From positions 24,067 to 88,066 of the forward strand of contig JAGWWT010000002.1 of the NCBI GenBank assembly GCA_018970245.1: 64,000 nt of DNA. The letters run 5' to 3'. The notes below the pieces were generated by a model that saw only the letters and a program-made list of their open reading frames with translations, did not search any database and was not told where the DNA came from. Origin of the DNA: Patescibacteria group bacterium. Lineage in GTDB: Bacteria > Patescibacteriota > Minisyncoccia > Phycocordibacterales > PALSA-1337. Positions 24,201 through 58,212 of this stretch are shown here, one piece after another (the first letter of the stretch is position 1; each line of letters starts with the position of its first letter). Position numbers and translations under genes: made by a program.

Positions 24201-26367
24201 CCTGTAAGACCGAGAATCCGAAGATCGGTACTGGATCGCCGTTGGCATAGTTCTGGTTGCGGCCGACTGCGGTGATGCCGATATTGTCGACGTTGAGCAG
24301 CTGATAGGCGTCGGTTTCGTCGCCGTTCAGATCGAAAACCGCCAGCTTCATCATGTTGACGCCCTCGTTCATCATGGTCGTATCCAATCCTGAATAAAGC
24401 ACTCCGTCGGTAACAGGCTTCGAAGAAGAGTAGATGGGCACGAATTGATGCGTCGGATTAAGCCCTTCGGCATACGAGATCGTATAGCGGGAGAAGCTAG
24501 ACGGGGTCAGCCCAGCAGCGCTGCCCGTGATCGAGATCTTATTTTGCCCTATCGGCAAAGCATCGAGCCTAGCTATCGACGGATGCCAGACACCGGATGT
24601 GGCCGCCATAGCGTCTATGCGTCCGGAGCCAAAAGCTTCCCACCGACCAGTTCCCGTGTATCCCAGCATGTTCGAGCTATGCATGATCACATCTTTGACC
24701 AGAGCAGGGCTCCAATCTGGATGGAGCTGGAGGATGAGAGCCGCCTCGCCAGCCACGTGTGGAGTGGCCATGGACGTCCCGGAGAGAGCGATATGCAAGT
24801 TGTCATGGTAGCAATTCGCATCGCCTTCCCCTTCGAAGGCGTGATCGAAGCGGGCGGCGCAGATATTGACGCCCGGGGCGGCGACATCCGGCTTCATGAG
24901 ATATCTTTCGGACCCATTCTGATCAGTCCACTCGACTGGACCGGCTGAGCTGAACCATGCCAGATAATCGGATTTATCTGTTGCCGCTACTGTGATCGCA
25001 TCCGCAGCAGTACCCGGAGAATCTATCGTATTCGGATTCGGACCATCGTTGCCGGCAGCTACCGTGACGACCACGCCTGCGGCTACGGCATTGTCCACCG
25101 CTTCTGCTACCGGATCATCTGGCGTGCCAGGACCGCCAAGGCTCAAGCTCGCAATGTCCAAGTGATCGGACACATCGCCGTCATTGTTCGGATCGGTCGC
25201 GCGCTCTATGCCGGCTATGACCGTCGTCCAGTCGCCTGATCCTCTCGAGTCTAGAACCTTGTAGGCGTATATCGATGCGCCCGGCGCGACTCCTTTGGGC
25301 ATGCCGTTGCCTGCGGCGATATCCGCCACATGCGTGCCGTGGCCCTGGTCATCCATCGGATCAGGCGTATTGTTCACGAAGTTATATCCGCCCACGACCT
25401 TGCAAGGGGTCGTCGTGCCATTGACGACATGCGTTCCGAAGCAGCCGCCCAGATCAGGATGCAGATAATCCACGCCGGTATCAATGATGGCTATGCTCAC
25501 CCCTTTTCCAGTGCTGCCATCCGGATTGCCGAGATAATTGCCAGCCCAGACTTGGGGCGCATTGATGAGCGGGACCGAATCCATGAGTGTGGCACGGACT
25601 TTGCCCACTGGCACCACCCGCTTCACATCCCGCATGCCTTTGACGGCTGCCGCTTCGGAGCCATTCATGTTCAAGACGACCGCATTTATGACGTCTTTGA
25701 ATCGCTTGGTCGTGCCAGCCTTCGGGCCCATCACCGATCTGCCGACGCTCTTATTCTTGGCCTGGATCGCGCCAGGCAGAGAAGCCAGGAATGAATCCTG
25801 CTCGCTCTGGACGGCCTGGCTCTGGGCGGCCAGCTGGCTCTTCACGTCCAGGCGGGCTTTCGTGCCTGCACCCGCTTGTGCCTTGAGCCTGGCATAAGTG
25901 ACAGCCACAGGCTCGGCTCGGAGCTCTACTATATATTCGTCCGGCACGACACTCGCATCCTTGGCTGATCCTGAATACACCGAACCTCCCGACTGTGACG
26001 GCTTCTGGCCAGGATATGAGACGATGTTATTCGCAGGCGCGATGGCGCTCTGGTATGGAGAGAGCTTCAGAGCTCCCGCTCCGCCAGACGCTTGATCGTA
26101 GAACACCGGATAATATGGATGTTTTTGAGAGGCCTGGCTAGAACCATCCGATGCCGGCTGACCCGAAGATCCGTTGGAAGATCCGCTCGAGGATCCGCCG
26201 AAAACGGACGAGAACATGTCGCCTATGGACGTGAAGATGTTAGCCATCTGATCCTGCGGCGGCGCCGCCCTCGCGACGAAGATGGAGGATCTTATGCTCG
26301 CAGCCAGACAGACTATCGAGAAGACGACGAGAGCGGCCGTCAATACAGCCTTGGGCTGTTTTTTCAT
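21298..26367 (-). CDS. secreted subtilisin-like serine protease (S8), 1689 aa, with Pro/Ser/Thr-rich C-terminal tail
   Basis: N-terminal signal/TM; catalytic triad motifs IIDTGVDYLHPD, HGTHVADIAAG, GTSMATPHVAG; long beta-rich middle; C-terminal about 170 aa of P/S/T/Y low complexity. Confidence 0.85.
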   Translation of the reverse strand: MKKQPKAVLTAALVVFSIVCLAASIRSSIFVARAAPPQDQMANIFTSIGDMFSSVFGGSSSGSSNGSSGQPASDGSSQASQKHPYYPVFYDQASGGAGALKLSPYQSAIAPANNIVSYPGQKPSQSGGSVYSGSAKDASVVPDEYIVELRAEPVAVTYARLKAQAGAGTKARLDVKSQLAAQSQAVQSEQDSFLASLPGAIQAKNKSVGRSVMGPKAGTTKRFKDVINAVVLNMNGSEAAAVKGMRDVKRVVPVGKVRATLMDSVPLINAPQVWAGNYLGNPDGSTGKGVSIAIIDTGVDYLHPDLGGCFGTHVVNGTTTPCKVVGGYNFVNNTPDPMDDQGHGTHVADIAAGNGMPKGVAPGASIYAYKVLDSRGSGDWTTVIAGIERATDPNNDGDVSDHLDIASLSLGGPGTPDDPVAEAVDNAVAAGVVVTVAAGNDGPNPNTIDSPGTAADAITVAATDKSDYLAWFSSAGPVEWTDQNGSERYLMKPDVAAPGVNICAARFDHAFEGEGDANCYHDNLHIALSGTSMATPHVAGEAALILQLHPDWSPALVKDVIMHSSNMLGYTGTGRWEAFGSGRIDAMAATSGVWHPSIARLDALPIGQNKISITGSAAGLTPSSFSRYTISYAEGLNPTHQFVPIYSSSKPVTDGVLYSGLDTTMMNEGVNMMKLAVFDLNGDETDAYQLLNVDNIGITAVGRNQNYANGDPVPIFGFSVLQGVTSYRVVVDDPNNGKTVCNVAAVQASVICSPSFKGLQDGIHSLYLEAQYNGSWRVSVPFKFAYVQELMSGWPQTMPGWARGMPEVIHQPGSASKLAVPYYSDCSIPGMCGGPPTILYYSADGAHTLVSSLSNGDRMPYDWMAAQVHMQQGNAIAAAEAFGDNRKAIFKPDGQVISSWGAGKPVINSDFTVFNRDGSGLGLYAVSQDMNTGAVQINGYDLNGNALKGFPINVPMPYDIAGTKLSPSPQPTDVPLHQIAFLHPVFISGGKQQNLAVVTGTYTGSGQFFNDLKLYVDVFSAENQLIKTEKLFDGTGKSYRLMGSYPIAADLHGDGKTEMIFGFTAVDAGLFNANMYDPDAYTTYMTELDSSGNVLALSKPIRGYIMNQLAVGDIGNGAPDIVAVLGDSWASMNDQIAGFDSSLNSIFTHTENDRIEGISLADVEGTGSSQIIASYNNINMDGSPSGIEILNGSGSVTRNIVIPTMGAQDQLTAPLVDSLNGDADVFAASLEIPENFHFGFGNTYNMNLYALDVGRMPKAESPKAPSPSPTPTAAWAGFDWPSLLSDYHNTGCYHCAAWTSFGQSIATTTATTSSAASVTVASSSLALQYDPSGHEATLVATFKVDVSAGSADLIIPAYFPFNLYATDGRDIMSDQEQFALPPGVTSDNLRDTIPAGSTAEFTVTMKMNPKIMFPGSYKAILDRMWTIDPLGRYNYISVPTPNSTDPVTIIGELSPYIFSIAPNPVPADQPVTVTGVRFVTSGMNQITLTDPRSQASATRYAQSSDGKSMRFVPNADPGYYNVQVVNQKTGNSNMVPLQVTAPLVAASPTPLPSDTSSPQQTSAPAYSATPVASPTPSPSYTYNPIYSPVPTYTYSPTYSPVYSSPTPVATPASSPTAVSSPAPAASPSSSPVSSPSASPTPSPVQSTYAAPSTSPSASPSPSAFNGGQYLGAAFQSWIGLVGTIFDLGR

Positions 26368-45966: not shown

Positions 45967-48111
45967 TCAGCTGAGCTTCGCTCTCCGCAGGAGGAGCGCA
46001 TTCAGCACCACTATGACCGAAGAGGCGCTCATGAGCAGTGCCGCCCATTCTGGACGGAGCAGGATACCGAACGACGGATAGAGGATGCCGGCAGCTATCG
46101 GGATGGCGAACACGTTGTATCCGGCAGCCCAAGCGAGATTCTGAACCGTCTTTCGGTTGGTCTTCTTGGACAAAGAGATGGCCTTGACGACGTCGAGCGG
46201 GTCGCTCCTCATGAGGACGATCTCCGCCGACTGGACCGCCACGTCGGTCCCGGCGCCTATGGCAATGCCCACGTGCGACTGGGCCAGAGCGGCCGCATCG
46301 TTCACGCCGTCGCCCACCATGGCGACCACATGGCCTTCGTCTTGAAGCTGCTTGACCTTGTCCACTTTGTCCTCCGGCAGGACGCGCGCGAACACAGTAT
46401 CGATCCCCAAGCCTTCGCCCACTTCATCGGCCACATCCTCCGTATCGCCAGTGAGCATGGCCGTCCGGATGCCCATGCCGTGGAGCTTCTCTATAGCCGC
46501 CTTCGATTCTTCTCGCACGACGTCTTCCAGGAATATAACGCCGGCGAATGCACCGTCTATCGCGACATATGCAGGAGTGCCGGTCTCGTCGCTCTCTGAA
46601 GCGGATACCGCGATCTCCTGCTCATCTAATAGGCGCTTATTGCCGACCAGGACTCTCTTGCCATCGACCGTCGCCGAAGCGCCCTTGCCAGAGAATGACC
46701 TGAAATCCTTGGCTTCGGGGACAGACAATCCCCTCTTCTTGGCTTCGTCGACTATGCCCGCTGCTATCGAATGCTGGGAATGCACTTCGACTGCCGCAGC
46801 CAGCATCAGCAATTCATCCTGACTTTCGACTTTATGGACTTTGTGACTTTCGACTTCATTATCCCGGCTTTCGATTATTTTTTTGACTCCGAATTCCCCT
46901 TTCGTGAGCGTCCCTGTCTTGTCGAAGACTACATAATCCAGCTTGCGAGCGGCTTCCAGACCCTTCATGTCTTTGATGAGGATGCCATTCCTCGCGCCTA
47001 AAGCCGAGGTTATCGATGTGACGGTCGGGATGGCAAGGCCAAGAGCATGAGGACATGCGACGACGATAGCGGCCACCGCCACGGTCGCGGCGAATATCGC
47101 TCCATGCGGCGAGGCGAAGCACCAGAATATGAAAGAGCCGATGCCCGCGGCTACAGCTACATAGAAAAGGACCGCTGCCAATCTGTCTGCGACCAGTTGG
47201 ACTCGGGGCTTGGAAGCCTGGGCACCGCGCACGAGGTCCATGATCTGCGAAATGGCCGTGTCCGAGCCGACCTTCGATACTTCGACGGTGAGCGAGCCAT
47301 CCTCGTTGAGCGTGCCGCCTATGACGGCGTCTCCGGGCTTCTTCGCGACGGGCTTGGACTCTCCTGTGATCATGGCCTCGTTCACCGAGCTCTCCCCCGC
47401 CATGGCCTTCCCGTCGATCGGGATCTTCTCGCCAGGCTTCACCAATATACGGTCGCCTATCTTGAGCTCGCCCGTTCCGACATCGACGGCGTCCCCGTCC
47501 CTCAACAGATGCGCCGACGGCGGGATCAATCTCGCCAATTCGGTGAGAGCTCCAGTCGCTCCTCGCACCGCCCTCATCTCCAGCCAGTGGCCGAGAAGGA
47601 AAACAGAGATCAGGGTGGACATCTCCCAATAGAGCGATTCGCCTGGGAAGAGGAACGTCGTCGCCACAGAGAAGGCATAAGCCACGGCTATGCCGAATGC
47701 CACCAAGGTCATCATGGCTGGAAGCTTCCTGGAGAGCTCGCCTCTGGCGCTCTTGAAGAAAGGCCAGCCTCCATACAAGAAGACGACTGTGCCGAGCGCG
47801 AAGGTGACGATCTCTTTGCCAGCGAACGGCACGCCAAACCCTAGCCACTTCTCGATATTCGGCGACAATGCCATGACGAGGAGCACGAAAGGCAGCGTCA
47901 GCCAGAATCTCTGTTTGAAATCCTGCTCTGCGCCTTTGCCATGCCCGGCATGGCCTTCTTGGCTTTCCTGTCCGCCATGCATCCCGCCTCCCATATCCAT
48001 CAGCACGAGATCCATGCCGCATTTCCGGCATTCGCCTGGAGCATCGGATATCACATCCGGGTCCATCGGACAAGAATACAATCGCTTATGGCCAAGATGC
48101 CCGCGCTCCAT
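45967..48111 (-). CDS. copB: copper-translocating P1B-type ATPase (CopB-like, CPH motif)
   Basis: N-terminal YSCPMDPDV...PGECRKCGMDL metal-binding motif, His-rich stretch, TM6 ACPHALGLA, DKTGTLT, GDGVNDAAAL. Confidence 0.85.
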   Translation of the reverse strand: MERGHLGHKRLYSCPMDPDVISDAPGECRKCGMDLVLMDMGGGMHGGQESQEGHAGHGKGAEQDFKQRFWLTLPFVLLVMALSPNIEKWLGFGVPFAGKEIVTFALGTVVFLYGGWPFFKSARGELSRKLPAMMTLVAFGIAVAYAFSVATTFLFPGESLYWEMSTLISVFLLGHWLEMRAVRGATGALTELARLIPPSAHLLRDGDAVDVGTGELKIGDRILVKPGEKIPIDGKAMAGESSVNEAMITGESKPVAKKPGDAVIGGTLNEDGSLTVEVSKVGSDTAISQIMDLVRGAQASKPRVQLVADRLAAVLFYVAVAAGIGSFIFWCFASPHGAIFAATVAVAAIVVACPHALGLAIPTVTSITSALGARNGILIKDMKGLEAARKLDYVVFDKTGTLTKGEFGVKKIIESRDNEVESHKVHKVESQDELLMLAAAVEVHSQHSIAAGIVDEAKKRGLSVPEAKDFRSFSGKGASATVDGKRVLVGNKRLLDEQEIAVSASESDETGTPAYVAIDGAFAGVIFLEDVVREESKAAIEKLHGMGIRTAMLTGDTEDVADEVGEGLGIDTVFARVLPEDKVDKVKQLQDEGHVVAMVGDGVNDAAALAQSHVGIAIGAGTDVAVQSAEIVLMRSDPLDVVKAISLSKKTNRKTVQNLAWAAGYNVFAIPIAAGILYPSFGILLRPEWAALLMSASSVIVVLNALLLRRAKLS

Positions 48112-48124
48112 ATGATTATTGCGA

Positions 48125-48817
48125 TCATTTCTTCGCGCGCTTCAGAGCCCATCCGACGATGACGACAGCTCCCACCAAAGCCAGCGCCCACAGGACCGCC
48201 ATGAATATCGTGCCGCCCCAGCCCCAGCCGTATCCGAATCCTGGCATACCGAACGACGATCCCCAACCCATCATGCCATAGCCTCTGCCGAAGCCATTCC
48301 AGCCCATCATGCCGTATCCGCCATCGCTTCCAAATCCGCCCATCATCGGCCCGAAGCCCATCATCCCGGCCGGGAATGAGACATTCTCGTCGCAGCCGGA
48401 GAAGCGCTCCCCCATGGCGATGTGCATCTGGTCGTCGTAAGACTGCCCGTAGCGGCTGACGATATAGGCGTCCATGGCGTCGTGGCCTGATCCCATCATC
48501 AAGCTCATATAATATTCTCCGAGCGAGCTGTAGTCGCTCTGTGAAAGGCTGCTGCATGAGACGGACTTGGCTTGGAGCTTCTCGGCGAGAGCCTGGCCTG
48601 CGAGCTCTTCTGCATCCATAGCCGTGCTGGTCCCGGAAGAGGCGGCGGTCGATGTGGCTGAACCATAGTATCCGCCCATCATGCCTTGGCCGTAGCCATA
48701 TCCAGAGTCTCCGTCATAGAACCCGCCCATCATCTGAGCGTGAACCGCCTGCGTGGAAAGGAGCCCGACCATGGCCGCGAACGAAATCGATAATGCGTAC
48801 GCTGTGATCTTCTTCAT
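48125..48817 (-). CDS. secreted Gly/Met-rich protein with C-terminal TM anchor (putative Cu-binding)
   Basis: signal peptide; repeated MMGG/YGMMGW motifs; 4 nt before the copB start. Confidence 0.5.
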   Translation of the reverse strand: MKKITAYALSISFAAMVGLLSTQAVHAQMMGGFYDGDSGYGYGQGMMGGYYGSATSTAASSGTSTAMDAEELAGQALAEKLQAKSVSCSSLSQSDYSSLGEYYMSLMMGSGHDAMDAYIVSRYGQSYDDQMHIAMGERFSGCDENVSFPAGMMGFGPMMGGFGSDGGYGMMGWNGFGRGYGMMGWGSSFGMPGFGYGWGWGGTIFMAVLWALALVGAVVIVGWALKRAKK

Positions 48818-48866
48818 GTGATCTTTGCGATAAAAATGGATTATTAAAAGCGATCTATATTCGGCG

Positions 48867-49133
48867 CTATTTCTGCGCCAATCTATAGACCTTCAGGATC
48901 TCTTCGGTCGCTCTCTTCTCGTGCCCGTGCCTGATGTCATGGGCGACATGGGTCTCTAGATGGTTCCTCAGGATCAGGCTGCCGACGCCGGCCAAGGCCT
49001 CGCGGACCGCTTCGATCTGCGTGATTATATCGACGCAGTATTTTTCCTGATCGACCATCTCTTCTATGCCCCTTATCTGGCCGCCTGCTATAGACAGGCG
49101 CCTCTTCGCGCTCTTTTTTATATCCTTCTTCAT
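48867..49133 (-). CDS. csoR: CsoR/RcnR-family metal-sensing repressor
   Basis: RLSIAGGQIRGIEEMVDQEKYCVDIITQ...H..H pattern of CsoR (DUF156); start at internal ATG. Confidence 0.8.
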   Translation of the reverse strand: MKKDIKKSAKRRLSIAGGQIRGIEEMVDQEKYCVDIITQIEAVREALAGVGSLILRNHLETHVAHDIRHGHEKRATEEILKVYRLAQK

Positions 49134-49431
49134 GTCCTGTATGATACCCCCAGGGGTATCGGCGTCAAGCAGGCCTGTGGATAGGTGCAGGCCGTCGGCG
49201 CACGAACCGAAAAGGCTCGGCTGACCGGGCCTTCCGGTACCTCTGTTCCCGGCCCGCGTAACCTGACGCACCGGGAGCTAGGCTCAATAAATGGCGACAG
49301 ATGGACCTCAAATGTAGGTCGACCTGCCGTATGACACCGCTAACAATCCTTTCAAAAACCGCACCTTGCATTACTGCTTGGCCGTCCCCAGGATTGCGTC
49401 CCCTGGGACCGCGATGCCATATCTAACCTAC

Positions 49432-50046
49432 CTACGTTAACACCTGAGACGACCGGAGGTTTCGGTGCGCCCCGGCCTGCGCCTTGGGCTTGGCTTTGGC
49501 CTTGGTTTGCGGCATAGTCCCGCATTCCTGTCTGATCTTGTTCCTGATCCTGAAGAGGAGCAGCTTGGCGCCAGAGACTGTGCGGTGTATGCGCTGCGCT
49601 ATCTCCTTGTTGTGCATGCCGCGGATGTAGGCCATGCCCAGGACGGACCGCTCGAATGGCGAAAGATGCTCGATGGCCCGGACCAAGTCCTCGCGCTCCA
49701 GATAAGCCTTGATGTCGCTCTTCTCGTCGGCCATTTCCGGCATCTGCTCTTTTTCGATATGGCTCCATGGCACGCTCTTTATGCGCCTGTAGTGATTGAC
49801 GAGCAGGTTGTGCGCGATGGTCATGAGATAGGTTATGTATAGATATCCCTCTTCCCTGAAAGCCGGAAAATGCTTCAAGGCGCGGAGGAACGTATCCTGG
49901 GCGAGATCCTCGGCCAGCTCGTGGTCATAACCGACGCGATTCAGGAAATAGCCGTACACGCGCCCGTAATACGCATCGTACAAAGCCCCGAAATCGCGCG
50001 GGTGCAAGGATGACTTATGAAGGATGGCTGGATCGGCGGCTCTCAT
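49432..50046 (-). CDS. RNA polymerase ECF-type sigma-70 factor
   Basis: region 2 DLAQDTFLRALKHF, region 4 HTH NKEIAQRIHRTVSGAKLLLFRIRNKI; Lys/Ala-rich C-terminal tail. Confidence 0.8.
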   Translation of the reverse strand: MRAADPAILHKSSLHPRDFGALYDAYYGRVYGYFLNRVGYDHELAEDLAQDTFLRALKHFPAFREEGYLYITYLMTIAHNLLVNHYRRIKSVPWSHIEKEQMPEMADEKSDIKAYLEREDLVRAIEHLSPFERSVLGMAYIRGMHNKEIAQRIHRTVSGAKLLLFRIRNKIRQECGTMPQTKAKAKPKAQAGAHRNLRSSQVLT

Positions 50047-50177
50047 GCCACCAATATATGCCGTCTGCGGAGATTGTTAACGATTTTTAAGGCATCGCGC
50101 CGCCCTGCCTATTCCAGCTAGGCAGAGAGCCGGATATCTCTTCTTGAAATACGACGATCGCGTCGTCTATGGCTGTC

Positions 50178-50909
50178 TCAAACCGATGTCTGCCACATGG
50201 ATTCGAACAGCAGCTTCATGGTCCCAGCGATCGCCTGGTCCTTTATGAGTATGCCGAATGGCCGCTTCTCATTCATGGAAATCATGGCGGTCGTGTCGGC
50301 GTATATGAGGTTGGCATTCTCGATGCGCGACCCTTGGGGCAGGAACCTGGTCAGCCGCAGCTCCTTCGGGTCGGCGGATCTGAGCTTCGCGGAAGCCGGC
50401 GTCTTGTCGGTGATGAGCCTCATTCGCAAGAACCGCTTGCGCCGCCGCTCTATGAGATCGGATACGTAGTCTTCCCCGAGGAGATCGATCCAGCTGTCCC
50501 AGGGCAAGAATGCCGATATCTCGTGCTTGGTCTCGATCATGTCGTCGAGTATGAGCTTTATCTCTCCGGCGCCGGTATATGTGATGATCCGCGGCGCAGC
50601 AGCCTCTGCGGTCTGCTTGGTCCTGAGCTTCGGCACTATCCCCTCGAATGCTTTGAGCTTCTCAGCCAAGCCGGCAGCGATCTTCTCTGGATCGACGGCC
50701 ACCCAGTGGAGCCTATGGCGCCTGGTATATGAATTGACGAGGCCGTGCTTGTGCATACGGCGGAGCACTTCCTCGGCTGTGGTAAGAGGTATGTCGGTCC
50801 TATCAGAAAGCTCGGCCGTCGTGCTGTCGCCGGACTCCAACGCCGAAATATAGAGCTGTATCTCCCTAGGATGGAACCCCACATATTCCATTGTGGAGCG
50901 CACATTCAT
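50178..50909 (-). CDS. TrmB-family transcriptional regulator
   Basis: N-terminal HTH LYISALESGDSTTAELSDRTDIPLTTAEEVLRRMHKHGLV plus C-terminal effector-like domain. Confidence 0.6.
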   Translation of the reverse strand: MNVRSTMEYVGFHPREIQLYISALESGDSTTAELSDRTDIPLTTAEEVLRRMHKHGLVNSYTRRHRLHWVAVDPEKIAAGLAEKLKAFEGIVPKLRTKQTAEAAAPRIITYTGAGEIKLILDDMIETKHEISAFLPWDSWIDLLGEDYVSDLIERRRKRFLRMRLITDKTPASAKLRSADPKELRLTRFLPQGSRIENANLIYADTTAMISMNEKRPFGILIKDQAIAGTMKLLFESMWQTSV

Positions 50910-50955
50910 AGCCTAAGCCTATACCCGGACCCAGTAACTTGCAACCTCTAGAGAT

Positions 50956-51420
50956 CTATTGTGGAACGGCCTGTTTCTTGCGCATCAGCCAGAGGACGAT
51001 GATGACGGAAGCTATCGAGATCGCGAAGCTGCCGACGACGTCTGCCGTGTGATGCACGCCTACGTAGACGCGGCTGACAGCGACGAGGATCGCCAGGACC
51101 CAGAGCGCCGCTCCCATCTTCCTGTTCCAGACGGTCCCTATCATCGCTATGGCGGAGACGAGGAGAGCATGATCTGACGGGAATCCGTTGTCTGCCGCGT
51201 GCGGTACGAGGGGCACGAAGTTCCCGACGACGAACGGCCGAGGATCATATATGAGGAGGCTGCCGATCTTGGCGAGAATGAAGGCCAGCACAGCCGAGCA
51301 GACCGCGAATATGATCATGCGCTTCCAGCCGGCCCGAGGCTGCATGAAGAAATAGACGGCCAGAATGAGCGCTGGCAGAACGAACAGGTATTTGGCGCAG
51401 AAGATGAAGAAAGAGTCCAT
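50956..51420 (-). CDS. PAP2-family phosphatase (BcrC/YbjG-like undecaprenyl-diphosphatase candidate)
   Basis: PAP2 motifs PSDHA and SRVYVGVHHTADV; 4 TM. Confidence 0.75.
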   Translation of the reverse strand: MDSFFIFCAKYLFVLPALILAVYFFMQPRAGWKRMIIFAVCSAVLAFILAKIGSLLIYDPRPFVVGNFVPLVPHAADNGFPSDHALLVSAIAMIGTVWNRKMGAALWVLAILVAVSRVYVGVHHTADVVGSFAISIASVIIVLWLMRKKQAVPQ

Positions 51421-53078: not shown

Positions 53079-53296
53079 TGTATTTTTTAGTGGAATGCGA
53101 TTAACTGTCAGCCTCTATTATACTGAACATTATGCCTCTGCAAAATACCTTGATCATTCAATGCCCCTACATTATTCTACGAATATGAACAGGCCGTTTA
53201 ATGCAATCTGCTGAGCCACAGACCATTGACAATTGACTGATTATCATTTATATTATTTTCAGTGCTCGTTAACAACAGAATAGGAGAAATCACAAA

Positions 53297-53842
53297 ATGA
53301 AAACAAAGGACAGACAGGCTTTCAACGCCTTGAATGGGAAAGGCTCGGAGCGCGCTGATCGTTTGCATCGATTTCTCATGGAATCGGGCTTTGATTTCGC
53401 GACGGGTGTGCCGTGCGGAGTGTTGAAACATATCATAGCCAATTTGGTTGGCGATAAACGGGTATGTCATGTGCCCGCCAATCGCGAATCGGAAGCTATA
53501 GGACTTGCTGCCGGAGCATATCTGGCCGGTAAGAAACCGCTGGTGTATATGCAGAATTCGGGATTATTCGCAGCGTCTAACGACATCGCTTCATTGCTAG
53601 TGCCGTATGGAATACCGGCGTTAATGCTGATATCTTACCGCGGTTGCGAAGGAGAAGACGCCGTTCAACATCTGACTACCGGCCATGCGACGGAAAATCT
53701 GATCCGATCATTCAATCTGCCATATGAAGTGTTTGACGGCCGGAAACGCGACATAAACGCCTGCGTTTCCGTCTTGATCGGTCTGATGACCGAAAGAGAG
53801 CTTCCGGCGATACTTCTGCTGAAGAGAGGATGGTATGTATGA
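53297..53842 (+). CDS. TPP-dependent sulfopyruvate/phosphonopyruvate decarboxylase-like, alpha subunit (ComD-like)
   Basis: 181 aa; TPP-enzyme N-terminal (pyrimidine-binding) domain pattern GFDFATGVPCGVL...ANRESEAIGLAAGAYLAGKKP. Confidence 0.7.
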   Translation: MKTKDRQAFNALNGKGSERADRLHRFLMESGFDFATGVPCGVLKHIIANLVGDKRVCHVPANRESEAIGLAAGAYLAGKKPLVYMQNSGLFAASNDIASLLVPYGIPALMLISYRGCEGEDAVQHLTTGHATENLIRSFNLPYEVFDGRKRDINACVSVLIGLMTERELPAILLLKRGWYV

Positions 53843-54411
53843 AAAGAGCCGACGTCATTGAGATCGTAGCGACTTCAACACAATGCGACGACGTCATCGT
53901 TGCGACTACCGGGTTGATATCCAGAGAACTATTCGAAAGATTCGACTCCGAGAGGAACGTGTATATACCGGGTTCAATGGGATTGGTTTCATCCGTGGGA
54001 TTAGGCATAGCCTTGTGTGACACAAATCACAGGGTGGTGATAATAGACGGAGATGCTAGCCTACTCATGAACTTGGGTTCAATGGTAACTATTGGATCAA
54101 GGAGACCGAAAAATCTCCTCCATATAGTGTTGGACAACGGCGCATACGCGTCGTGCAGCGAGGAATCATCCATGTCCGGAACGGCAAACTTCGGATTATT
54201 GGCTAAAGATGTAGGCTACAAATATACCGCTACCGTTGGCGACAGAGAAGCATTAAAACGTGCTATACTGTCGTTCAAGGGCGGCCCGGGATTCTTGTCT
54301 GCCATAACGGAACTTGGAGGACGGCGAGATTTTCGCCGGCCGCAAAAGCTCAAAGAGATCAAAAGACGGTTCATGAGATTCATGAGCCGGCAACCAAAAG
54401 GAAAAATATGA
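53830..54411 (+). CDS. TPP-dependent sulfopyruvate/phosphonopyruvate decarboxylase-like, beta subunit (ComE-like)
   Basis: TPP-binding motif GSMGLVSSVGLGIAL...IDGDASLLMNLGSMVT...LDNGAY; 13-nt overlap with alpha gene. Confidence 0.7.
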   Translation: MVCMKRADVIEIVATSTQCDDVIVATTGLISRELFERFDSERNVYIPGSMGLVSSVGLGIALCDTNHRVVIIDGDASLLMNLGSMVTIGSRRPKNLLHIVLDNGAYASCSEESSMSGTANFGLLAKDVGYKYTATVGDREALKRAILSFKGGPGFLSAITELGGRRDFRRPQKLKEIKRRFMRFMSRQPKGKI

Positions 54412-55250
54412 TGTTTCAAGGAAAAAAAGTATTCAACGCATCGTTCGACGCCTATGCCGACGATTATCACGAAGTCCGGCCGGGATATCCCGACCAGATG
54501 TTCAACGATATCAAGGCTCAATGCGGCATAACCGGTGACTCTAAGCTCCTGGAGATAGGGGCCGGCAGCGGCATAGCCACGAAAAAGCTGGCCGAGTTCG
54601 GTTGCAAGATAACCGCGCTCGAGCCAGGATCGAATCTGGCACGCATCGCCAGAAAACACACCTCCAAACTGCAAAATGTGGAGATAATCGAGGACACATT
54701 CGAATCCTTTCAACCGAAAGGAAAATTCGACACCGTCTTGGCGTTCACGGCGTTTCATTGGGTTCCCGGAAACGACAAATACGGAAGAGCTATGGAACTG
54801 CTCAATGATTCCGGGAGCTTGGTGATAGTATGGAACAGCTTTCTACAGGATCATTCCGCCGTGACCGCCGAAGTCAACGAGGCCTACGACAGATTGTTGC
54901 CGACGGTCTACGGTAAGATCGGGGACTCTTCGGAAATCAACAAGAGGGTCTTGGCCAAGCTGACTTCAAGGGAAAGGGAAATATTTCTCAACGATCGCCT
55001 GTATCCGGTATTCTTGCGGAAATACACCGCCAGATACAACTACGACGACAAGACCTATCCTCAACTGCTCAATACGTTCCCGAAGATAGTCGGAACCGAG
55101 GATTCCGTGCGCAGCTCGTTTCTCCGAGAAGTGTCAGGGATCATCAAGCGCCACGAGATGATCACGGTACCGGTCCTCACGACAGTCGTGATCTGCAGAC
55201 GCAGAGAGTCATTCTTGCGAATGACCGTAAATGAAGACAGAGAGGAGTAA
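54408..55250 (+). CDS. class I SAM-dependent methyltransferase
   Basis: motif I LLEIGAGSGIATKKLAEFGCKITALEP; 4-nt overlap upstream. Confidence 0.7.
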   Translation: MMFQGKKVFNASFDAYADDYHEVRPGYPDQMFNDIKAQCGITGDSKLLEIGAGSGIATKKLAEFGCKITALEPGSNLARIARKHTSKLQNVEIIEDTFESFQPKGKFDTVLAFTAFHWVPGNDKYGRAMELLNDSGSLVIVWNSFLQDHSAVTAEVNEAYDRLLPTVYGKIGDSSEINKRVLAKLTSREREIFLNDRLYPVFLRKYTARYNYDDKTYPQLLNTFPKIVGTEDSVRSSFLREVSGIIKRHEMITVPVLTTVVICRRRESFLRMTVNEDREE

Positions 55251-55252
55251 GT

Positions 55253-56344
55253 ATGATAGACACAGAAAGGCTATTGCAGCTTTCGCGGCAATACAGAACG
55301 CCGCTGGAAGATACGATGTTTATATCGCTCAACATGAGCGGTGTGAGCTTCAAATGCGATTACAACAGGATGCGGACAGCCGTAAGGCTGGAAAATCATG
55401 AGCTGTTCGGATATGCGGAGGAACGAAATGAACTTGAATATTATTTCGCCCTGCCGATAAACGACTCTAGCCCGTTCCGGATATCCGGCGACGTTCTGTC
55501 GTTAGGAGACACGGCGATAGGCTCCACCGTCGGAGCGACGGAAGATATCTGCGATTCGCACTATCCGAGAAGGCGAGGCACTTCGCTGAATCTTAACCCC
55601 AATTCTCGGACATCTTGCCGCGGTTGCGAATTCTGCTACACCGCGTATCAAGTGCCGTGCGACAGGAAAAAACTGAGGGATCGCCGAGATCTCGAGGAAT
55701 TTTTCGAGGGGTGGATGAAAGGACGATGCTTATCGGATCTGTCCGGTCTCATCCAAGTATCAGTCGTGACAGGATGTTACGACGGCGGCAAGGAAGTATG
55801 CCGTTTCATCTTGGAACTAAGGAGCGTATTGAGCCGATACGGATTCAACGGTTCGATATTCTATCTTGGTTCTCAGTTGACGACGGAAGACGAATTGAGC
55901 CGCTTGGAAGCGGCCAAGCCAGTCAGTGTATGTTATTCGCTGGAGACGTTCGAGAGACGCGAGTTGTTGCGAGATAAAAAGCGCTTACTCAGCCTTAATA
56001 GAGCCGTTGAGCTCATGGATTTCTCCAGGGAGTCAGGATACGAGACCAGCTTTTCCTATGTCATTGGCTTGGAGCCTTTGCACATAGTGGGCAAGCACTT
56101 CTCTTATCTGAAAGATCACATCAACAAATTCCCCATCATCAACACTCTGCAGATACACAAATATCACAGAGCCGAATTGGCCGATCCGAGCGTTGACGGA
56201 CCGGAATATTACTTGAGAGCGAGACGGCTTCTTGAGCAGATATTCTCGGATACGCCCATGAGGCCGCTGGTTTGGGAGAATTATCGCAGCTTATGGTTTC
56301 TGACCTTCAACAACGAACCGCTATATGGTTGGAGAACGCCTTAG
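55253..56344 (+). CDS. radical-SAM-like protein with non-canonical CX2CX2C cluster motif
   Basis: SRTSCRGCEFCYTAY (Cys triad with aromatic before the third Cys) about 120 aa from the N-terminus; 363 aa. Confidence 0.4.
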   Translation: MIDTERLLQLSRQYRTPLEDTMFISLNMSGVSFKCDYNRMRTAVRLENHELFGYAEERNELEYYFALPINDSSPFRISGDVLSLGDTAIGSTVGATEDICDSHYPRRRGTSLNLNPNSRTSCRGCEFCYTAYQVPCDRKKLRDRRDLEEFFEGWMKGRCLSDLSGLIQVSVVTGCYDGGKEVCRFILELRSVLSRYGFNGSIFYLGSQLTTEDELSRLEAAKPVSVCYSLETFERRELLRDKKRLLSLNRAVELMDFSRESGYETSFSYVIGLEPLHIVGKHFSYLKDHINKFPIINTLQIHKYHRAELADPSVDGPEYYLRARRLLEQIFSDTPMRPLVWENYRSLWFLTFNNEPLYGWRTP

Positions 56345-56364
56345 ACCTAAGCTTGGACACTAAC

Positions 56365-56397
56365 AGCCATGCGACATCCGTCCGCATGGCTTTTTTA
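56365..56397 (+). terminator. rho-independent terminator between convergent units
   Basis: AGCCATGCG-N9-CGCATGGCT then TTTTTT. Confidence 0.75.
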
Positions 56398-56409
56398 TGT
56401 TCTAATTAT

Positions 56410-56871
56410 CTAAACATCTATCTCCTCGCCATCCGGAAATATTTCTGATATTTTTTCAGACGTTTCGCGCAATTGTCCGTCGAACAGCAGGTAATTCCCC
56501 AATTGCGTAAATGGCACCCATGCGTACGACCTCACTTCGCCTTTCTTCGGTCTGACATCGTATGTACCGACCAAGCGAAACCCGAAAAAGTATCTTTCCG
56601 AACCGTCGTATTTTTTGCCGTCGCGATTCATTGTGATCACCTTGAATCTGAAACGCACGGGTACATGACTCCGTCCGACTAACTCGAGGGAACTTTTTTC
56701 TATGCCGAGTTCCTCGCGCACTTCTCGATACACGGCATCTTCCAATGTTTCTCCCTGCTCGACTCCGCCGCCCGGAACGGCGAAATACTTATTTTCAAAA
56801 GACTCCAGATTGACAAGGAGAAATTCCTTATTACTGTTCATTATGAGAGCTGATACGCCTTTTCTGTACAT
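56410..56871 (-). CDS. NUDIX hydrolase
   Basis: Nudix box GGGVEQGETLEDAVYREVREELGI. Confidence 0.8.
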   Translation of the reverse strand: MYRKGVSALIMNSNKEFLLVNLESFENKYFAVPGGGVEQGETLEDAVYREVREELGIEKSSLELVGRSHVPVRFRFKVITMNRDGKKYDGSERYFFGFRLVGTYDVRPKKGEVRSYAWVPFTQLGNYLLFDGQLRETSEKISEIFPDGEEIDV

Positions 56872-56901
56872 GGCGATAGTATAACAAAGTAGTAATTACA
56901 G

Positions 56902-57654
56902 TTATATTCTCCTCCTCAACACCGTAATGTTCCGCCCGCCTGGATAAGGTTTCTTGGCCGCATCGAAATCGCTGAAGTCGGAGACGTGTTCCCATTTACT
57001 GGTAGCCTCCGCTTTGGCGATAAAATCATTGATTCTATATAATTTCCTTGTCTCGGTATGTTCTATCACTTTTTTCTCGCCGTTCTCCTCTATCTCCAGT
57101 ATTATCCTTGCGTCAGATAACCCATTTCGCTCATCTATCCATTTAGGATCATAAGTGGTGATCACCTTTACACCGTCTCGCTCCATCTCCCATGTCTGGA
57201 TTCCGAAATCTTCCGGAAAGAAAAGTACGGCTCCGTCCAGAAAGTACAGACCTCCGCCCCTTACAGAGTGTGCCACCGAATCCATATGGCTCTGCAATTC
57301 ATGGTCATCAGTCACATAGAACGAGCCCAGGAAAAGCAAAGCGCAGTCGGCTTGTTTATTCGTGCGGAAGTTTCTTAAATCTCCTCGGATGATTTCGGCC
57401 TTGAGTCCCAAATCTTCTATAGTCTTTGTTGAATATTCGATCATCTCCTCATTCTGTTCCAAACCGACATAGTCGTAGCCTCGCCGGCACAACTCGCTCA
57501 TGTGCGGACTATTACCGGACGCTATCTCCAAGACTGTCTTTACCGGTATCAGCGATTCATTCTTTATGATTTGCTCGAGGAAATCTACTTCCTTCGCGAT
57601 ATCTCGGAATGAAAAAGCTATATCGTAATATTTTGGATTATCGTAGACATCCAT
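56902..57654 (-). CDS. class I SAM-dependent methyltransferase (TylM1/small-molecule N- or O-MTase-like)
   Basis: YYDIAF...VLEIASGNSPH motif I, acidic motif II. Confidence 0.7.
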   Translation of the reverse strand: MDVYDNPKYYDIAFSFRDIAKEVDFLEQIIKNESLIPVKTVLEIASGNSPHMSELCRRGYDYVGLEQNEEMIEYSTKTIEDLGLKAEIIRGDLRNFRTNKQADCALLFLGSFYVTDDHELQSHMDSVAHSVRGGGLYFLDGAVLFFPEDFGIQTWEMERDGVKVITTYDPKWIDERNGLSDARIILEIEENGEKKVIEHTETRKLYRINDFIAKAEATSKWEHVSDFSDFDAAKKPYPGGRNITVLRRRI

Positions 57655-57675
57655 AGGGTCGTAATATTTACAGCT

Positions 57676-58203
57676 CTATACTAAATACTCTCTAATTTCC
57701 TCAAAATCCTCGTATGAGTGATCGTCGCCTTTGCACACAATAAGATCCAGTGACCCAAATTTTCCCTCAGCTTGCTCTCTCCTTATATCTTCCGCCGAAG
57801 CCACGGGATCATGATCATTCTGAATGAGCGTCGTCGGCACGGAATAATCAGATGACCAAGCATCAATATCAAAACGGTTCTTCCTAGCCCATTCCGGAGG
57901 CAAACCTAGAAATACGCACCTGCCTATGCGTTCCGCCGCAATCGTTTTCGAATGAATGGAAAGCATGAACAATACGGTACCTATGGACTTGGCAAGAATA
58001 GCAATATCTCCACTGAAAGATCTCGCCGTATTTGTCAATTTCTTCAGTTCAATCTCCATATCTATCAACTCGCCGCCACTTGCCCAGTGGTCATAATATT
58101 GGACGGAAATTGATTTGAAATCGTCGGCAAAATAATCGCGCGCTTTTTCCGCCCATTCCTTATTTGACGCGCCGTTGCCTGGAATGATCATGAGGTTGCT
58201 CAT
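57676..58203 (-). CDS. alpha/beta-hydrolase (YdeN/RBBP9-like serine hydrolase)
   Basis: 175 aa; IIPGNGAS start and AKSIG nucleophile-elbow-like motif. Confidence 0.55.
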   Translation of the reverse strand: MSNLMIIPGNGASNKEWAEKARDYFADDFKSISVQYYDHWASGGELIDMEIELKKLTNTARSFSGDIAILAKSIGTVLFMLSIHSKTIAAERIGRCVFLGLPPEWARKNRFDIDAWSSDYSVPTTLIQNDHDPVASAEDIRREQAEGKFGSLDLIVCKGDDHSYEDFEEIREYLV

Positions 58204-58212
58204 AATTTCGTG

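Follow-up and report, generated by a model that had tools for sequence, protein, structure and literature searches.

Layout of the operon

The locus belongs to a MAG of Patescibacteria (CPR) and lies within a 64-kb stretch of DNA that was analyzed as a whole and is referred to below as the window. As described in an earlier note on this DNA, four ORFs are present on the plus strand at 53297–56344. They encode the two halves of a ThDP-dependent enzyme (TPPa and TPPb), a class I SAM methyltransferase (MT1), and a 363-aa radical-SAM-barrel protein (rSAM*; Table 1). The identities proposed in that note for the TPP halves and the methyltransferase are borne out by Pfam and NCBIfam matches and by an intact ThDP motif.

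Table 1. Features of the four-gene operon and its immediate surroundings (positions in the window)
Feature	Position	Strand	Remarks
Promoter-like site TTGACA-17-TATATT	53226..53254	+	Consensus match only, 11/12 positions; best of the region
TPPa, ThDP enzyme alpha subunit, PYR domain, 181 aa	53297..53842	+	ComD/RhiE/Ppd-N type
TPPb, ThDP enzyme beta subunit, PP domain, 190 aa	53839..54411	+	Alternative start at 53830
DNGAYASCSEE codons	54133..54165	+	Segment after the ThDP-binding Asn; aligned with DNGMHESTGGQ of RhiF
MT1, class I SAM-dependent methyltransferase, 280 aa	54408..55250	+	Pfam matches above cut-off
rSAM*, divergent radical-SAM protein, 363 aa	55253..56344	+	Fold and motif
C122-R-G-C125-E-F-C128 codons	55616..55636	+	Presumed [4Fe-4S] cluster loop, CX2CX2C
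Hairpin AGCCATGCG...CGCATGGCT, then TTTTTT	56366..56397	.	Sequence reading; missed by the consensus scan
Convergent genes	56410..57654	-	Pfam: NUDIX hydrolase (56410-56871), second class I methyltransferase (56902-57654)

The promoter-like site is situated ~43 nt 5' of the first ATG, with a GGAG ribosome-binding site between them. The genes for the TPP halves do overlap, as had been observed before, and the length of the overlap is most likely 4 nt (ATGA) rather than 13 nt: since all of the homologues begin with MKR and NCBI annotates a 190-aa product, the ATG at 53839 is, judging by sequence, the most likely start of TPPb. Another ATGA overlap is read at the TPPb/MT1 junction, and MT1 is separated from rSAM* by a 2-nt gap with GAGGAG just 5', in agreement with the translational coupling suggested earlier. 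The hairpin (RNAfold dG of −20.7 kcal/mol for 56345–56409) separates rSAM* from the NUDIX gene that converges on it, and probably terminates transcription in both directions. The coupled junctions, the promoter-like site, and the terminator hairpin suggest that the four genes form a single self-contained operon.

The convergent NUDIX and second methyltransferase genes constitute a separate transcription unit, which possibly belongs to the same system, its membership being uncertain. A 33%-identical homologue of this second methyltransferase is found ~4 kb from the cassette in loci L003/L004, and NUDIX genes are present near the cassette in L001/L007, L025, L039, and L048. The operon occupies an island of low GC content (0.50 and 0.45 vs. 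0.57) and is adjoined by a ResIII helicase gene.

Proteins encoded by the operon

Profile searches revealed that TPPa matches TPP_enzyme_N as well as the N-halves of ComD and Ppd, and it carries the catalytic Glu motif RE(S)EA (RESEA). TPPb matches TPP_enzyme_C (E-value, 4e-12) and retains the ThDP/Mg motif GD(A)-x26-N (DGDAS...LDNG), followed by the family-specific AYASCSEE. The closest solved relative of the enzyme is the split phosphonopyruvate decarboxylase RhiEF, with E-values of 1.6e-23 for TPPa against RhiE (9IZ3_A) and 3e-24 for TPPb against RhiF. The ThDP enzyme is indeed split, as in ComDE, and this arrangement, which had been linked to ComDE in the earlier note, is not specific to it.

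The profile comparison proposed in the same note showed that neither half reaches the curated cut-offs. TPPa scores 113.5 bits with the ComD model TIGR03845 (cut-off, 147.95) and TPPb 137.3 bits with the ComE model TIGR03846 (cut-off, 221.5). The Ppd model TIGR03297, which is among the top NCBIfam matches, gives 109.6 bits for TPPa and 156.2 for TPPb, and even their sum (~266) is below the cut-off of 312.5. In the active-site comparison, the segment ESTGGQ, which follows the ThDP-binding Asn generally in the Ppd family, was found replaced by ASC[SN]EE: the form SC[SN]EE (A/G-S-C-S/N-E-E) is conserved across the CPR cassette family, and RhiF, like the homologue L029 from DPANN, retains ESTGGQ. 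Genes for Ppd are normally clustered with pepM. The PEP-mutase signature EDKx5NS is absent from all six frames of the 64-kb window, where no PEP mutase had been seen before either, and from the six frames of 39 related loci with flanks of up to 10 kb, the sole match (L035) being antisense to an ABC ATPase gene. Based on the sub-cut-off scores, the replaced ESTGGQ, and the absent PepM motif, the ThDP enzyme would be neither Ppd nor ComDE, despite the annotation of homologues as phosphonopyruvate decarboxylase in some sources.

MT1 carries a Rossmann domain at its N-terminus and is capped by ~130 aa at its C-terminus. It scores 41.8 bits with Methyltransf_11 (cut-off, 21.2) and 40.9 bits with Methyltransf_25 (cut-off, 27), and its motif I, LEIGAGSG, is of the GxGxG type. 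The weak PDB matches of MT1 are to uncharacterised and small-molecule/carboxyl methyltransferases; it also weakly matches KsgA/Erm and the tRNA methyltransferase CmoM, over the generic SAM-binding region only.

According to the structure model and its fold matches, rSAM* consists of a family-specific N-terminal domain of ~115 aa and a partial (beta/alpha)6 TIM barrel. No known fold was matched by the N-terminal domain in structure comparison, and no cobalamin-binding-domain match was obtained for rSAM* in Pfam. The cysteine triad reported earlier (C122-x2-C125-x2-C128) proved invariant in the family, but it is not the canonical CX3CX2C: the motif is shorter by one residue, and an aromatic residue precedes the last Cys. 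More distant sister clades carry CX3CX2C in the corresponding loop. In the structure model, this loop of rSAM* is flanked by strand 111–114, which directly precedes the barrel, and by helix 144–157, the first of the barrel. With PF04055, rSAM* scores 19.6 bits (gathering cut-off, 29.5), and the sister-clade proteins P0398 and P0393 score 34.2 (above the cut-off) and 28.9 bits (just below). Its fold neighbours include LipA, MqnE, PylB, HydG, viperin, Elp3, RlmN, and MiaB. The rSAM* family comprises 327 representatives at E ≤ 1e-3 among 1.84 billion proteins; no NCBIfam match, no PDB sequence match, no literature, and no curated model were found for it. It therefore appears, from sequence and model, that rSAM* truly belongs to the radical-SAM proteins but represents a novel, small, and isolated family among them, and its reaction is likely new to radical-SAM enzymology. 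The pI of rSAM* falls in the acidic to neutral range (median, 6.2; N-terminal domain, 4.9) and that of MT1 is 7.0, which argues weakly against nucleic-acid substrates.

Conservation and relatives

None of the four genes is a spurious ORF, each having hundreds of homologues at 50–70% identity. The order TPPa-TPPb-MT1-rSAM* is shared by the window and all 22 related CPR loci, giving 23 distinct loci, the flanks of which are unrelated; TPPa was seen in each of the 21 loci whose contig reaches that far. Identities of the CPR loci to the window are ~46–70%, with 45% for the methyltransferase of L012. MT1 lies directly 5' of rSAM* in 22 of these loci (a GGDEF gene is found in between in L014), and the same holds for loci of Clostridia and Bacteroidetes. 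In a census of 107 flanking ORFs, nothing recurred apart from an additional radical-SAM, methyltransferase, or NUDIX gene now and then. This co-conservation amid unrelated flanks supports the small-molecule pathway, compact and possibly novel, that the earlier note put forward. Because the halves remain below the ComD/ComE and Ppd cut-offs and the four genes are conserved together, neither a firm grouping with a characterised primary-metabolism enzyme nor a lack of relation of the downstream genes, which that note had named as counter-evidence, was found.

Exceptions concern the ThDP enzyme. In the nearest relative of the cassette, recovered from three datasets (L001/L002/L007), an internal deletion takes half of each ThDP subunit, and MT1 and rSAM* are intact despite it; the DPANN loci L030 and L032 have rSAM* and a methyltransferase without an adjacent ThDP gene. 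The ThDP enzyme is thus not strictly required.

rSAM* nearly always adjoins a class I methyltransferase and a ThDP-dependent enzyme, and the latter is interchangeable: it is split and Ppd/ComDE-like in CPR and in one DPANN locus, and phosphoketolase-like elsewhere (L021, L023, L028, L035, L037, L038, L041, and L044–L048). The three phosphoketolase-like proteins that were scored (L037, L035, and L023) reach 419–521 bits, as compared with phosphoketolase cut-offs of at least 777. The non-CPR clusters are larger, with additional HAD phosphatase, enolase-like, GGDEF, NUDIX, exporter, and NRPS-like genes, as exemplified by Clostridium perfringens plasmids of the pCPF5603 type and by plasmids of Streptomyces, Nocardia, and Mycobacterium. 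The C. perfringens plasmids, including NC_007773.1 (pCPF5603), encode an ABC-2 exporter, BtrH-N, an adenylate-forming enzyme, an ACP, and an A-domain along with HAD, rSAM*, phosphoketolase-family, PHP, and MT genes. The actinobacterial plasmids add enolase-superfamily, HAD, GGDEF, creatininase, Sua5/YciO, PhyH, MFS, APH, and NUDIX genes, with a pyrF paralogue and a nucleoside hydrolase gene nearby. The HAD proteins of the clusters are nearest to YjjG-type pyrimidine nucleotidases, fusions of GrpB (nucleotidyltransferase fold) with rSAM* exist, and PHP, HD, and LigT phosphoesterases neighbour rSAM* in relatives. The pathway is thus possibly nucleotide-linked, a reading based on neighbours in distant relatives (28–37% identity) and not on the CPR cassette itself.

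Proposed pathway and known systems

We consider it fairly probable that the operon is a minimal, CPR-specific form of a widespread family of biosynthetic clusters with rSAM* as the signature enzyme, providing a ThDP/radical/methylation route to a small molecule. The ThDP enzyme would cleave a C–C bond next to a carbonyl, which in the window may be the decarboxylation of a 3-substituted pyruvate other than phosphono- or sulfopyruvate, and in the relatives the cleavage of a ketose phosphate or a 2-oxo acid. This step would yield an aldehyde or a ThDP-bound C2 unit, on or with which the 5'-deoxyadenosyl radical of rSAM* may drive C–C bond formation or rearrangement, and the class I methyltransferase would then methylate the product. 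The product is probably phosphorylated or nucleotide-derived, and most likely neither a phosphonate nor coenzyme M. In larger genomes the product would be exported or accompanied by self-resistance-like genes, which suggests an antimetabolite or a signal. A more specific version, in which rSAM* and the ThDP enzyme catalyze an unprecedented coupled reaction joining a radical (generated by the 5'-deoxyadenosyl radical, or that of the substrate) to the ThDP-derived C2/aldehyde unit and giving a new class of methylated nucleotide-derived antimetabolites or signals, is put forward only tentatively and is rather unlikely as it stands. If true, ultra-small CPR and DPANN symbionts would carry a minimal version, and the plasmids of C. 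perfringens (pCPF5603), Streptomyces, Nocardia, and Mycobacterium elaborated ones, for interference or host interaction.

The earlier note had related the ThDP halves to phosphonate and sulfonate enzymes, and both substrates now seem unlikely. Phosphonate biosynthesis, with a RhiEF-like Ppd, pepM elsewhere in the genome, and fosfomycin-style tailoring by the methyltransferase and the radical-SAM protein, would account for the RhiE and RhiF matches, the prominence of TIGR03297, and the existing annotations. It is highly improbable in view of the summed Ppd score, the replaced ESTGGQ, the absence of the PepM signature from the window and the 39 related loci, the phosphoketolase-like substitute in relatives, and an rSAM* with no detectable cobalamin-binding domain. 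Scarcely credible is a sulfonate or coenzyme M-type metabolism, in which the halves act as sulfopyruvate decarboxylase (ComDE) and sulfoacetaldehyde is the substrate of the downstream gene products: the split arrangement and the TIGR03845 and TIGR03846 matches fit, but the scores are well below the equivalog cut-offs, the acidic segment in place of ESTGGQ would suit an anionic sulfonate poorly, and the same phosphoketolase-like replacement occurs. The host is also against it, neither methanogenesis nor alkene metabolism being expected in Patescibacteria. The 25 commonest families of the flank census include none of the comA/comB/comC type. If rSAM* served to mature or activate the ThDP enzyme, installing a radical or a cofactor modification instead of acting on a free metabolite, this would explain why it tightly adjoins two unrelated kinds of ThDP enzyme. 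Such a role is very improbable, as loci that have lost or lack the ThDP genes still carry rSAM* and the obligatory methyltransferase partner is left unexplained; no precedent is known to us.

Two other explanations are unlikely as well, though less so than these, and to the same degree as each other. In one, rSAM* and MT1 would place a group on tRNA, rRNA, DNA, or protein and methylate it, much as Elp3/Trm9 or TYW1/Taw3 do, with the ThDP enzyme supplying a carbon unit. The KsgA/Erm and CmoM matches of MT1, the Elp3, RlmN, and MiaB neighbours of rSAM*, the persistence of rSAM* and a methyltransferase alone in DPANN loci and L001, and the restriction-modification genes adjoining some loci are consistent with this, but the MT1 matches cover only the generic SAM-binding region, and rSAM* and its N-terminal domain are acidic, the latter lacking a known RNA- or DNA-binding fold. 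Moreover, the distribution is patchy, plasmid-borne, and accessory, and the exporters, NRPS-like adenylation/ACP, MFS, and APH genes of relatives are typical of small-molecule pathways. The other narrows the small-molecule reading to anti-phage defence or interference by a toxic or chain-terminating nucleotide analogue, with a viperin-like logic. Viperins are among the fold neighbours of rSAM*; nucleotidase-like HAD, NUDIX, GGDEF, and GrpB genes are associated with it; and the low-GC island and the ResIII helicase in the window, the restriction-modification system next to L001, the McrBC, type I R subunit, and pAgo genes next to L037, and Cas3 next to L046 are compatible with such a role, as is the position of some loci in defence or mobile regions. 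However, PADLOC v2 has no match for rSAM*, TPPa, or TPPb, and the methyltransferases hit mad2 solely over its generic methyltransferase region; the flank census contains no consistent defence genes, and L005 lies among housekeeping genes. No relatives were found in phage/viral collections, which is neutral for a defence role.

For the preferred reading of a small-molecule pathway, the two unrelated ThDP architectures beside rSAM* constrain the substrate in a testable way, to a carbonyl compound cleaved at the adjacent C–C bond. The non-canonical CX2CX2C loop, the N-terminal domain without a structural match, and the lack of a curated model set rSAM* apart as new. CPR bacteria are credited with very little biosynthetic capacity, and therefore a conserved self-contained radical-SAM operon provides a defined target for symbiont products. 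The C. perfringens enterotoxin plasmid pCPF5603, with its NRPS-like/exporter cluster, and the actinobacterial plasmids are culturable systems for product identification.

Among known systems, RhiE/RhiF of rhizocticin (PDB 9IZ3/9IZ4) resemble the cassette in having separate PYR and PP genes (181/186 aa vs. 181/190 aa) and share the motifs GVPC, RE..A.G, MQNSGL, GSMG, DGD(G/A)S.LMN, and LDNG with it. They differ in the ESTGGQ segment (ASC[SN]EE in the cassette, which is below the Ppd equivalog cut-off and has no pepM neighbour) and in their partners, which are rhizocticin enzymes instead of a methyltransferase and a radical-SAM enzyme. ComD/ComE of coenzyme M likewise have split alpha/beta genes and detectable homology (TIGR03845/TIGR03846), whereas the host, the gene context, and the active-site-proximal segment are different and the cassette scores are well below the cut-offs. 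Radical-SAM and methylation functions also occur together with a Ppd-like decarboxylase in fosfomycin biosynthesis (Ppd and Fom3). Enzymes of the Fom3 type are radical-SAM methylases that depend on cobalamin; the analogy drawn in the earlier note is superficial, because rSAM* has no detectable cobalamin-binding domain and an N-terminal domain without a known fold, methylation in the cassette is attributed to a class I enzyme distinct from rSAM*, and the window shows no PEP mutase. LipA, MqnE, PylB, HydG, and viperin share 12–17% identity with rSAM* and have CX3CX2C instead of CX2CX2C, and no subfamily stands out. In tunicamycin biosynthesis, the radical-SAM enzyme TunB is paired with TunM, a class I methyltransferase-like protein; the cluster makes a nucleoside natural product and contains NUDIX, phosphatase, and ABC-transporter genes, with no ThDP enzyme. 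The likeness of TunB/TunM to the cassette would be one of logic only.

Operon layout and genomic setting

All four genes claimed for this place by the earlier note were found as ORFs on the plus strand, and the identities proposed for the first three, the N- and C-terminal halves of a ThDP enzyme (TPPa and TPPb) and a SAM methyltransferase (MT1), agree with the Pfam and NCBIfam matches. The fourth gene codes for a divergent 363-aa radical-SAM protein, designated rSAM*. Genes 1 and 2 share an ATGA overlap if gene 2 starts at 53839, a start backed by all homologues and by the NCBI annotation. Genes 2 and 3 also meet in an ATGA overlap, while a 2-nt gap, closely preceded by GAGGAG, lies between genes 3 and 4. 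These junctions, together with the promoter-like site and the 3' hairpin, mark TPPa-TPPb-MT1-rSAM* as a discrete operon. The 65-nt intergenic region containing the hairpin (56345-56409) has a folding energy of -20.7 kcal/mol, and the NUDIX gene 3' of the operon is convergent. At E<=1, Rfam gave no match in the operon or its leader, and seven relatives' loci scanned at the gathering threshold yielded tRNAs and a group II intron only, with no riboswitch.

Positions of the cassette genes, signals and features of related loci (window coordinates, unless a locus, L, or accession is given)
Feature	Position	Strand	Basis or remark
Gene 1, ThDP PYR half (TPPa)	53297-53842	+	Pfam, NCBIfam
Gene 2, ThDP PP half (TPPb)	53830-54411	+	Pfam, NCBIfam
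Gene 3, class I SAM methyltransferase (MT1)	54408-55250	+	Pfam, NCBIfam
Gene 4, rSAM*	55253-56344	+	Sub-threshold Pfam Radical_SAM match
Near-consensus promoter-like site	53226-53254		Consensus match
Hairpin (a T-run follows it), 3' of last stop codon	56366-56391		Sequence
C. perfringens cluster, L044	NZ_CP075954.1 49508-68569		Same gene on NC_007773.1 (pCPF5603)
GrpB-rSAM* loci	L040 8001-9572; L041 3240-4835
Separate GrpB gene, Micrarchaeota locus	L032 13285-13854		Two genes downstream of rSAM*
~150-aa family	L028 4892-5347; L029 84-614; L030 262-708; L038 7283-7741
GGDEF genes	L014 2489-3109; L037 15465-16349; L045 8282-8998; L047 11831-12457; L048 11932-13095

The operon has a G+C content of 50%, compared with 57% over the window's first 52 kb and 45% in the downstream region, and sits in a low-GC island. 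The stretch at 56345-64000 (minus strand, G+C 0.45) carries genes for a NUDIX hydrolase, a second class I methyltransferase and a histidine-phosphatase-family protein, several ORFs without Pfam, NCBIfam or PADLOC match, and a 781-aa ResIII/SWI2-SNF2 helicase, for which a PDB sequence search gave no match. This stretch looks like a horizontally acquired island and is possibly defence-related. Elsewhere in the window, 45967-49271 may be a copper-resistance module, as it has a heavy-metal P-type ATPase (with an HMBD domain) close to a metal-sensing repressor of CsoR type; next come an ECF sigma factor, a TrmB-family regulator and a PAP2 phosphatase (49432-51420). A very large ORF (1689 aa) occupies 21298-26367 on the minus strand.

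Conservation of the cassette and the rSAM* family

A hypothetical protein from a 'Patescibacteria group bacterium' MAG matches the window's rSAM* at 100% identity; an exact-sequence look-up gave no record. The relatives of rSAM* at 50-66% identity comprise ~200 cluster representatives, nearly all of 363-365 aa and mostly from Patescibacteria/Paceibacterota metagenomes. Neighbourhoods were taken from exact-protein look-ups and a scan of GTDB species genomes. Based on tblastn, the TPPa-TPPb-MT-rSAM order and spacing are kept in all 23 distinct CPR loci (the window included); the downstream genes thus do not prove unrelated, which the earlier note had named as grounds against its reading. TPPa was found in 21 of the 21 loci with a contig extending far enough. 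All flanking ORFs were clustered (107 in a Pfam census), and nothing else was recurrent except, now and then, additional genes of radical-SAM, methyltransferase, glycosyltransferase or NUDIX type. The conserved order and non-recurrent flanks show the CPR cassette to be a self-contained module inherited together.

The cassette's closest relative (66% identity) carries an internal deletion across both ThDP genes (L001 6567-7162, also L002 and L007), of which two short ORFs remain, coding for TPPa residues 1-84 and TPPb residues 77-192. This deletion, present in three independent assemblies, leaves the methyltransferase and radical-SAM genes intact. At L010 8577-10001, TPPb and the methyltransferase form one unbroken 474-aa ORF, possibly a natural fusion or a 1-nt assembly error; it is weak evidence only, because a 1-nt frame shift separates it from the near-identical L011 and L031, in which the two genes are separate and overlapping.

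Protein rSAM* gave only a sub-threshold Pfam Radical_SAM match (E 1e-3), no NCBIfam match and no result in a PDB sequence search; its family has no NCBIfam model, no specific Pfam family and no solved relative. The AlphaFold model, built with 32 homologues, is confident (pLDDT 90, pTM 0.89) and places C122-x2-C125-x2-C128 in the predicted cluster loop between strand 111-114 and helix 144-157. The CX2CX2C motif is invariant down to 28-35% identity, in Treponema, Clostridia, DPANN archaea and Actinobacteria, whereas in sister clades further removed the equivalent loop carries the canonical CX3CX2C, which suggests that the rSAM* motif is a derivative of the classical one shortened by one residue. 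A profile search of 1.84 billion representatives recovered no more than 327 proteins at E<=1e-3, of which 95 reached E<=1e-30; the family is small and well set apart from the remaining superfamily. No relatives were found in the viral contigs or phage genomes searched. Three representative clusters (P0287, P0289 and P0306) are fusions with GrpB (PF04229, nucleotidyltransferase fold) at the rSAM* N-terminus.

Related loci outside CPR

The split enzyme is absent from the loci in gut 'Clostridia' MAGs, a 'Rickettsiales'-labelled MAG, a Bacteroidetes MAG and Treponema lecithinolyticum; there, rSAM* adjoins a phosphoketolase-like ThDP enzyme of 640-751 aa. Three such phosphoketolase-like proteins scored 419-521 bits when tested, short of cut-offs that start at 777. 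Usually, a HAD phosphatase and a class I methyltransferase are present as well, and the HADs of rSAM* loci are nearest to YjjG-type pyrimidine nucleotidases, under the cut-off. In DPANN archaea, rSAM* is accompanied by a different class I methyltransferase and an unknown ~150-aa protein family; a split ThDP enzyme occurs at one locus, and no adjacent ThDP gene was found at two others. The ~150-aa family also accompanies rSAM* in phosphoketolase-type loci, has no Pfam match recorded for any of its four copies and was not detected in the CPR cassette. Stand-alone GGDEF-domain proteins adjoin rSAM* in five unrelated loci; on the plasmid from Mycobacterium, the start of rSAM* lies within an overlap with the GGDEF gene. 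Two sets of candidates were rejected: the 178- and 181-aa ORFs of L030 (DPANN), considered as hidden ThDP halves, look like housekeeping proteins in our reading, and rSAM315/unk416 of L037 and rSAM328/unk418 of L038, considered as further conserved components, have no mutual similarity.

By tblastn, 39 plasmids in PLSDB carry a member of the rSAM* family (30 from C. perfringens, five from Streptomyces, three from Nocardia farcinica and one from M. intracellulare), and by their RefSeq annotation the loci are typical secondary-metabolite clusters. The C. perfringens plasmids are about 75 kb and include NC_007773.1 (pCPF5603). Their cluster combines an ABC-2 exporter, a BtrH-N-domain protein, an adenylate-forming enzyme, an ACP and an adenylation-domain protein with HAD, rSAM*, a phosphoketolase-family protein, PHP and a methyltransferase. 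This enterotoxin-plasmid family bears an NRPS-like cluster, apparently one without prior characterisation. The actinobacterial set consists of rSAM*, an enolase-superfamily protein, HAD, GGDEF, a phosphoketolase-like protein and a methyltransferase, with creatininase-family, Sua5/YciO, PhyH dioxygenase, NUDIX, MFS or aminoglycoside-phosphotransferase-family genes added locus by locus; the Nocardia clusters have a pyrF paralogue and a nucleoside hydrolase in their vicinity. The M. intracellulare plasmid harbors an array of 17 tRNA genes (L045 260-1975) ~7 kb upstream of the cluster.

Proposed pathway and comparison with known systems

Thus, rSAM*, a class I methyltransferase and a ThDP enzyme form a conserved triad, in which the ThDP component comes from two architecturally unrelated enzymes. 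Common to both, we infer, is cleavage of a C-C bond beside a carbonyl. In the proposed pathway, this cleavage would yield a ThDP-bound carbanion/enamine or an aldehyde, rSAM* would carry out the pathway-defining radical step on or with the ThDP-derived unit, and the methyltransferase would finish the product in the last step. The ThDP enzyme is dispensable in some lineages: given the deletion in L001, L002 and L007 and the two DPANN loci without an adjacent gene for it, the carbonyl substrate may also come from general metabolism or from a host. Recurring HAD, PHP, HD, NUDIX and LigT phosphoesterases suggest a phosphorylated or nucleotide-derived scaffold, as do the GrpB, GGDEF, Sua5-like and pyrF neighbours, and the exporters and kinase in relatives' loci suggest a bioactive product.

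Nucleic-acid substrates are made slightly less likely by the acidic-to-neutral pI of MT1, of rSAM* and of the rSAM* N-domain. A defence or interference role, with a toxic nucleotide analogue as product, is kept as a live sub-hypothesis, since several related loci are situated in defence or mobile regions; however, a PADLOC scan of the four cassette proteins and six neighbours gave generic methyltransferase and NUDIX matches only. The earlier note had also drawn a Ppd- or fosfomycin-like link to phosphonates and named split genes as the arrangement of sulfopyruvate decarboxylase (ComDE). The nearest solved structure to TPPa/TPPb is that of RhiEF (E about 1e-23), a phosphonopyruvate decarboxylase that is also split, so the split is not diagnostic. 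Both halves match the ComD/ComE and Ppd models under every curated cut-off. The catalytic Glu and ThDP/Mg motifs are intact. Directly after the ThDP-binding Asn, in a segment near the active site by analogy with pyruvate decarboxylase, the cassette family conserves AY[AG]SC[SN]EE, whereas RhiF, and likewise the DPANN homologue adjoining the same radical-SAM gene, has (H/Y)ESTGGQ. With acidic residues in place of GGQ, a substituent that is an anionic phosphonate or sulfonate would fit poorly. A six-frame search for the PEP-mutase signature EDKx5NS found none in the window, in line with the earlier note, and none in 39 of the related loci. With sub-cut-off scores and a replaced segment, this makes a phosphonate or coenzyme-M role unlikely.

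Literature searches on sulfopyruvate decarboxylase, Patescibacteria, phosphoketolase, radical SAM, GrpB, pCPF5603 and nucleoside topics gave background on RhiEF and ThDP decarboxylases only, and no relevant work on the cassette or rSAM*. Uncharacterised so far are the radical-SAM subfamily, its motif, its N-domain, the ThDP partnership and the product. We rate the cassette as a radical-SAM-centred biosynthetic operon; since all its component superfamilies are known, it does not open an entirely new category of element.
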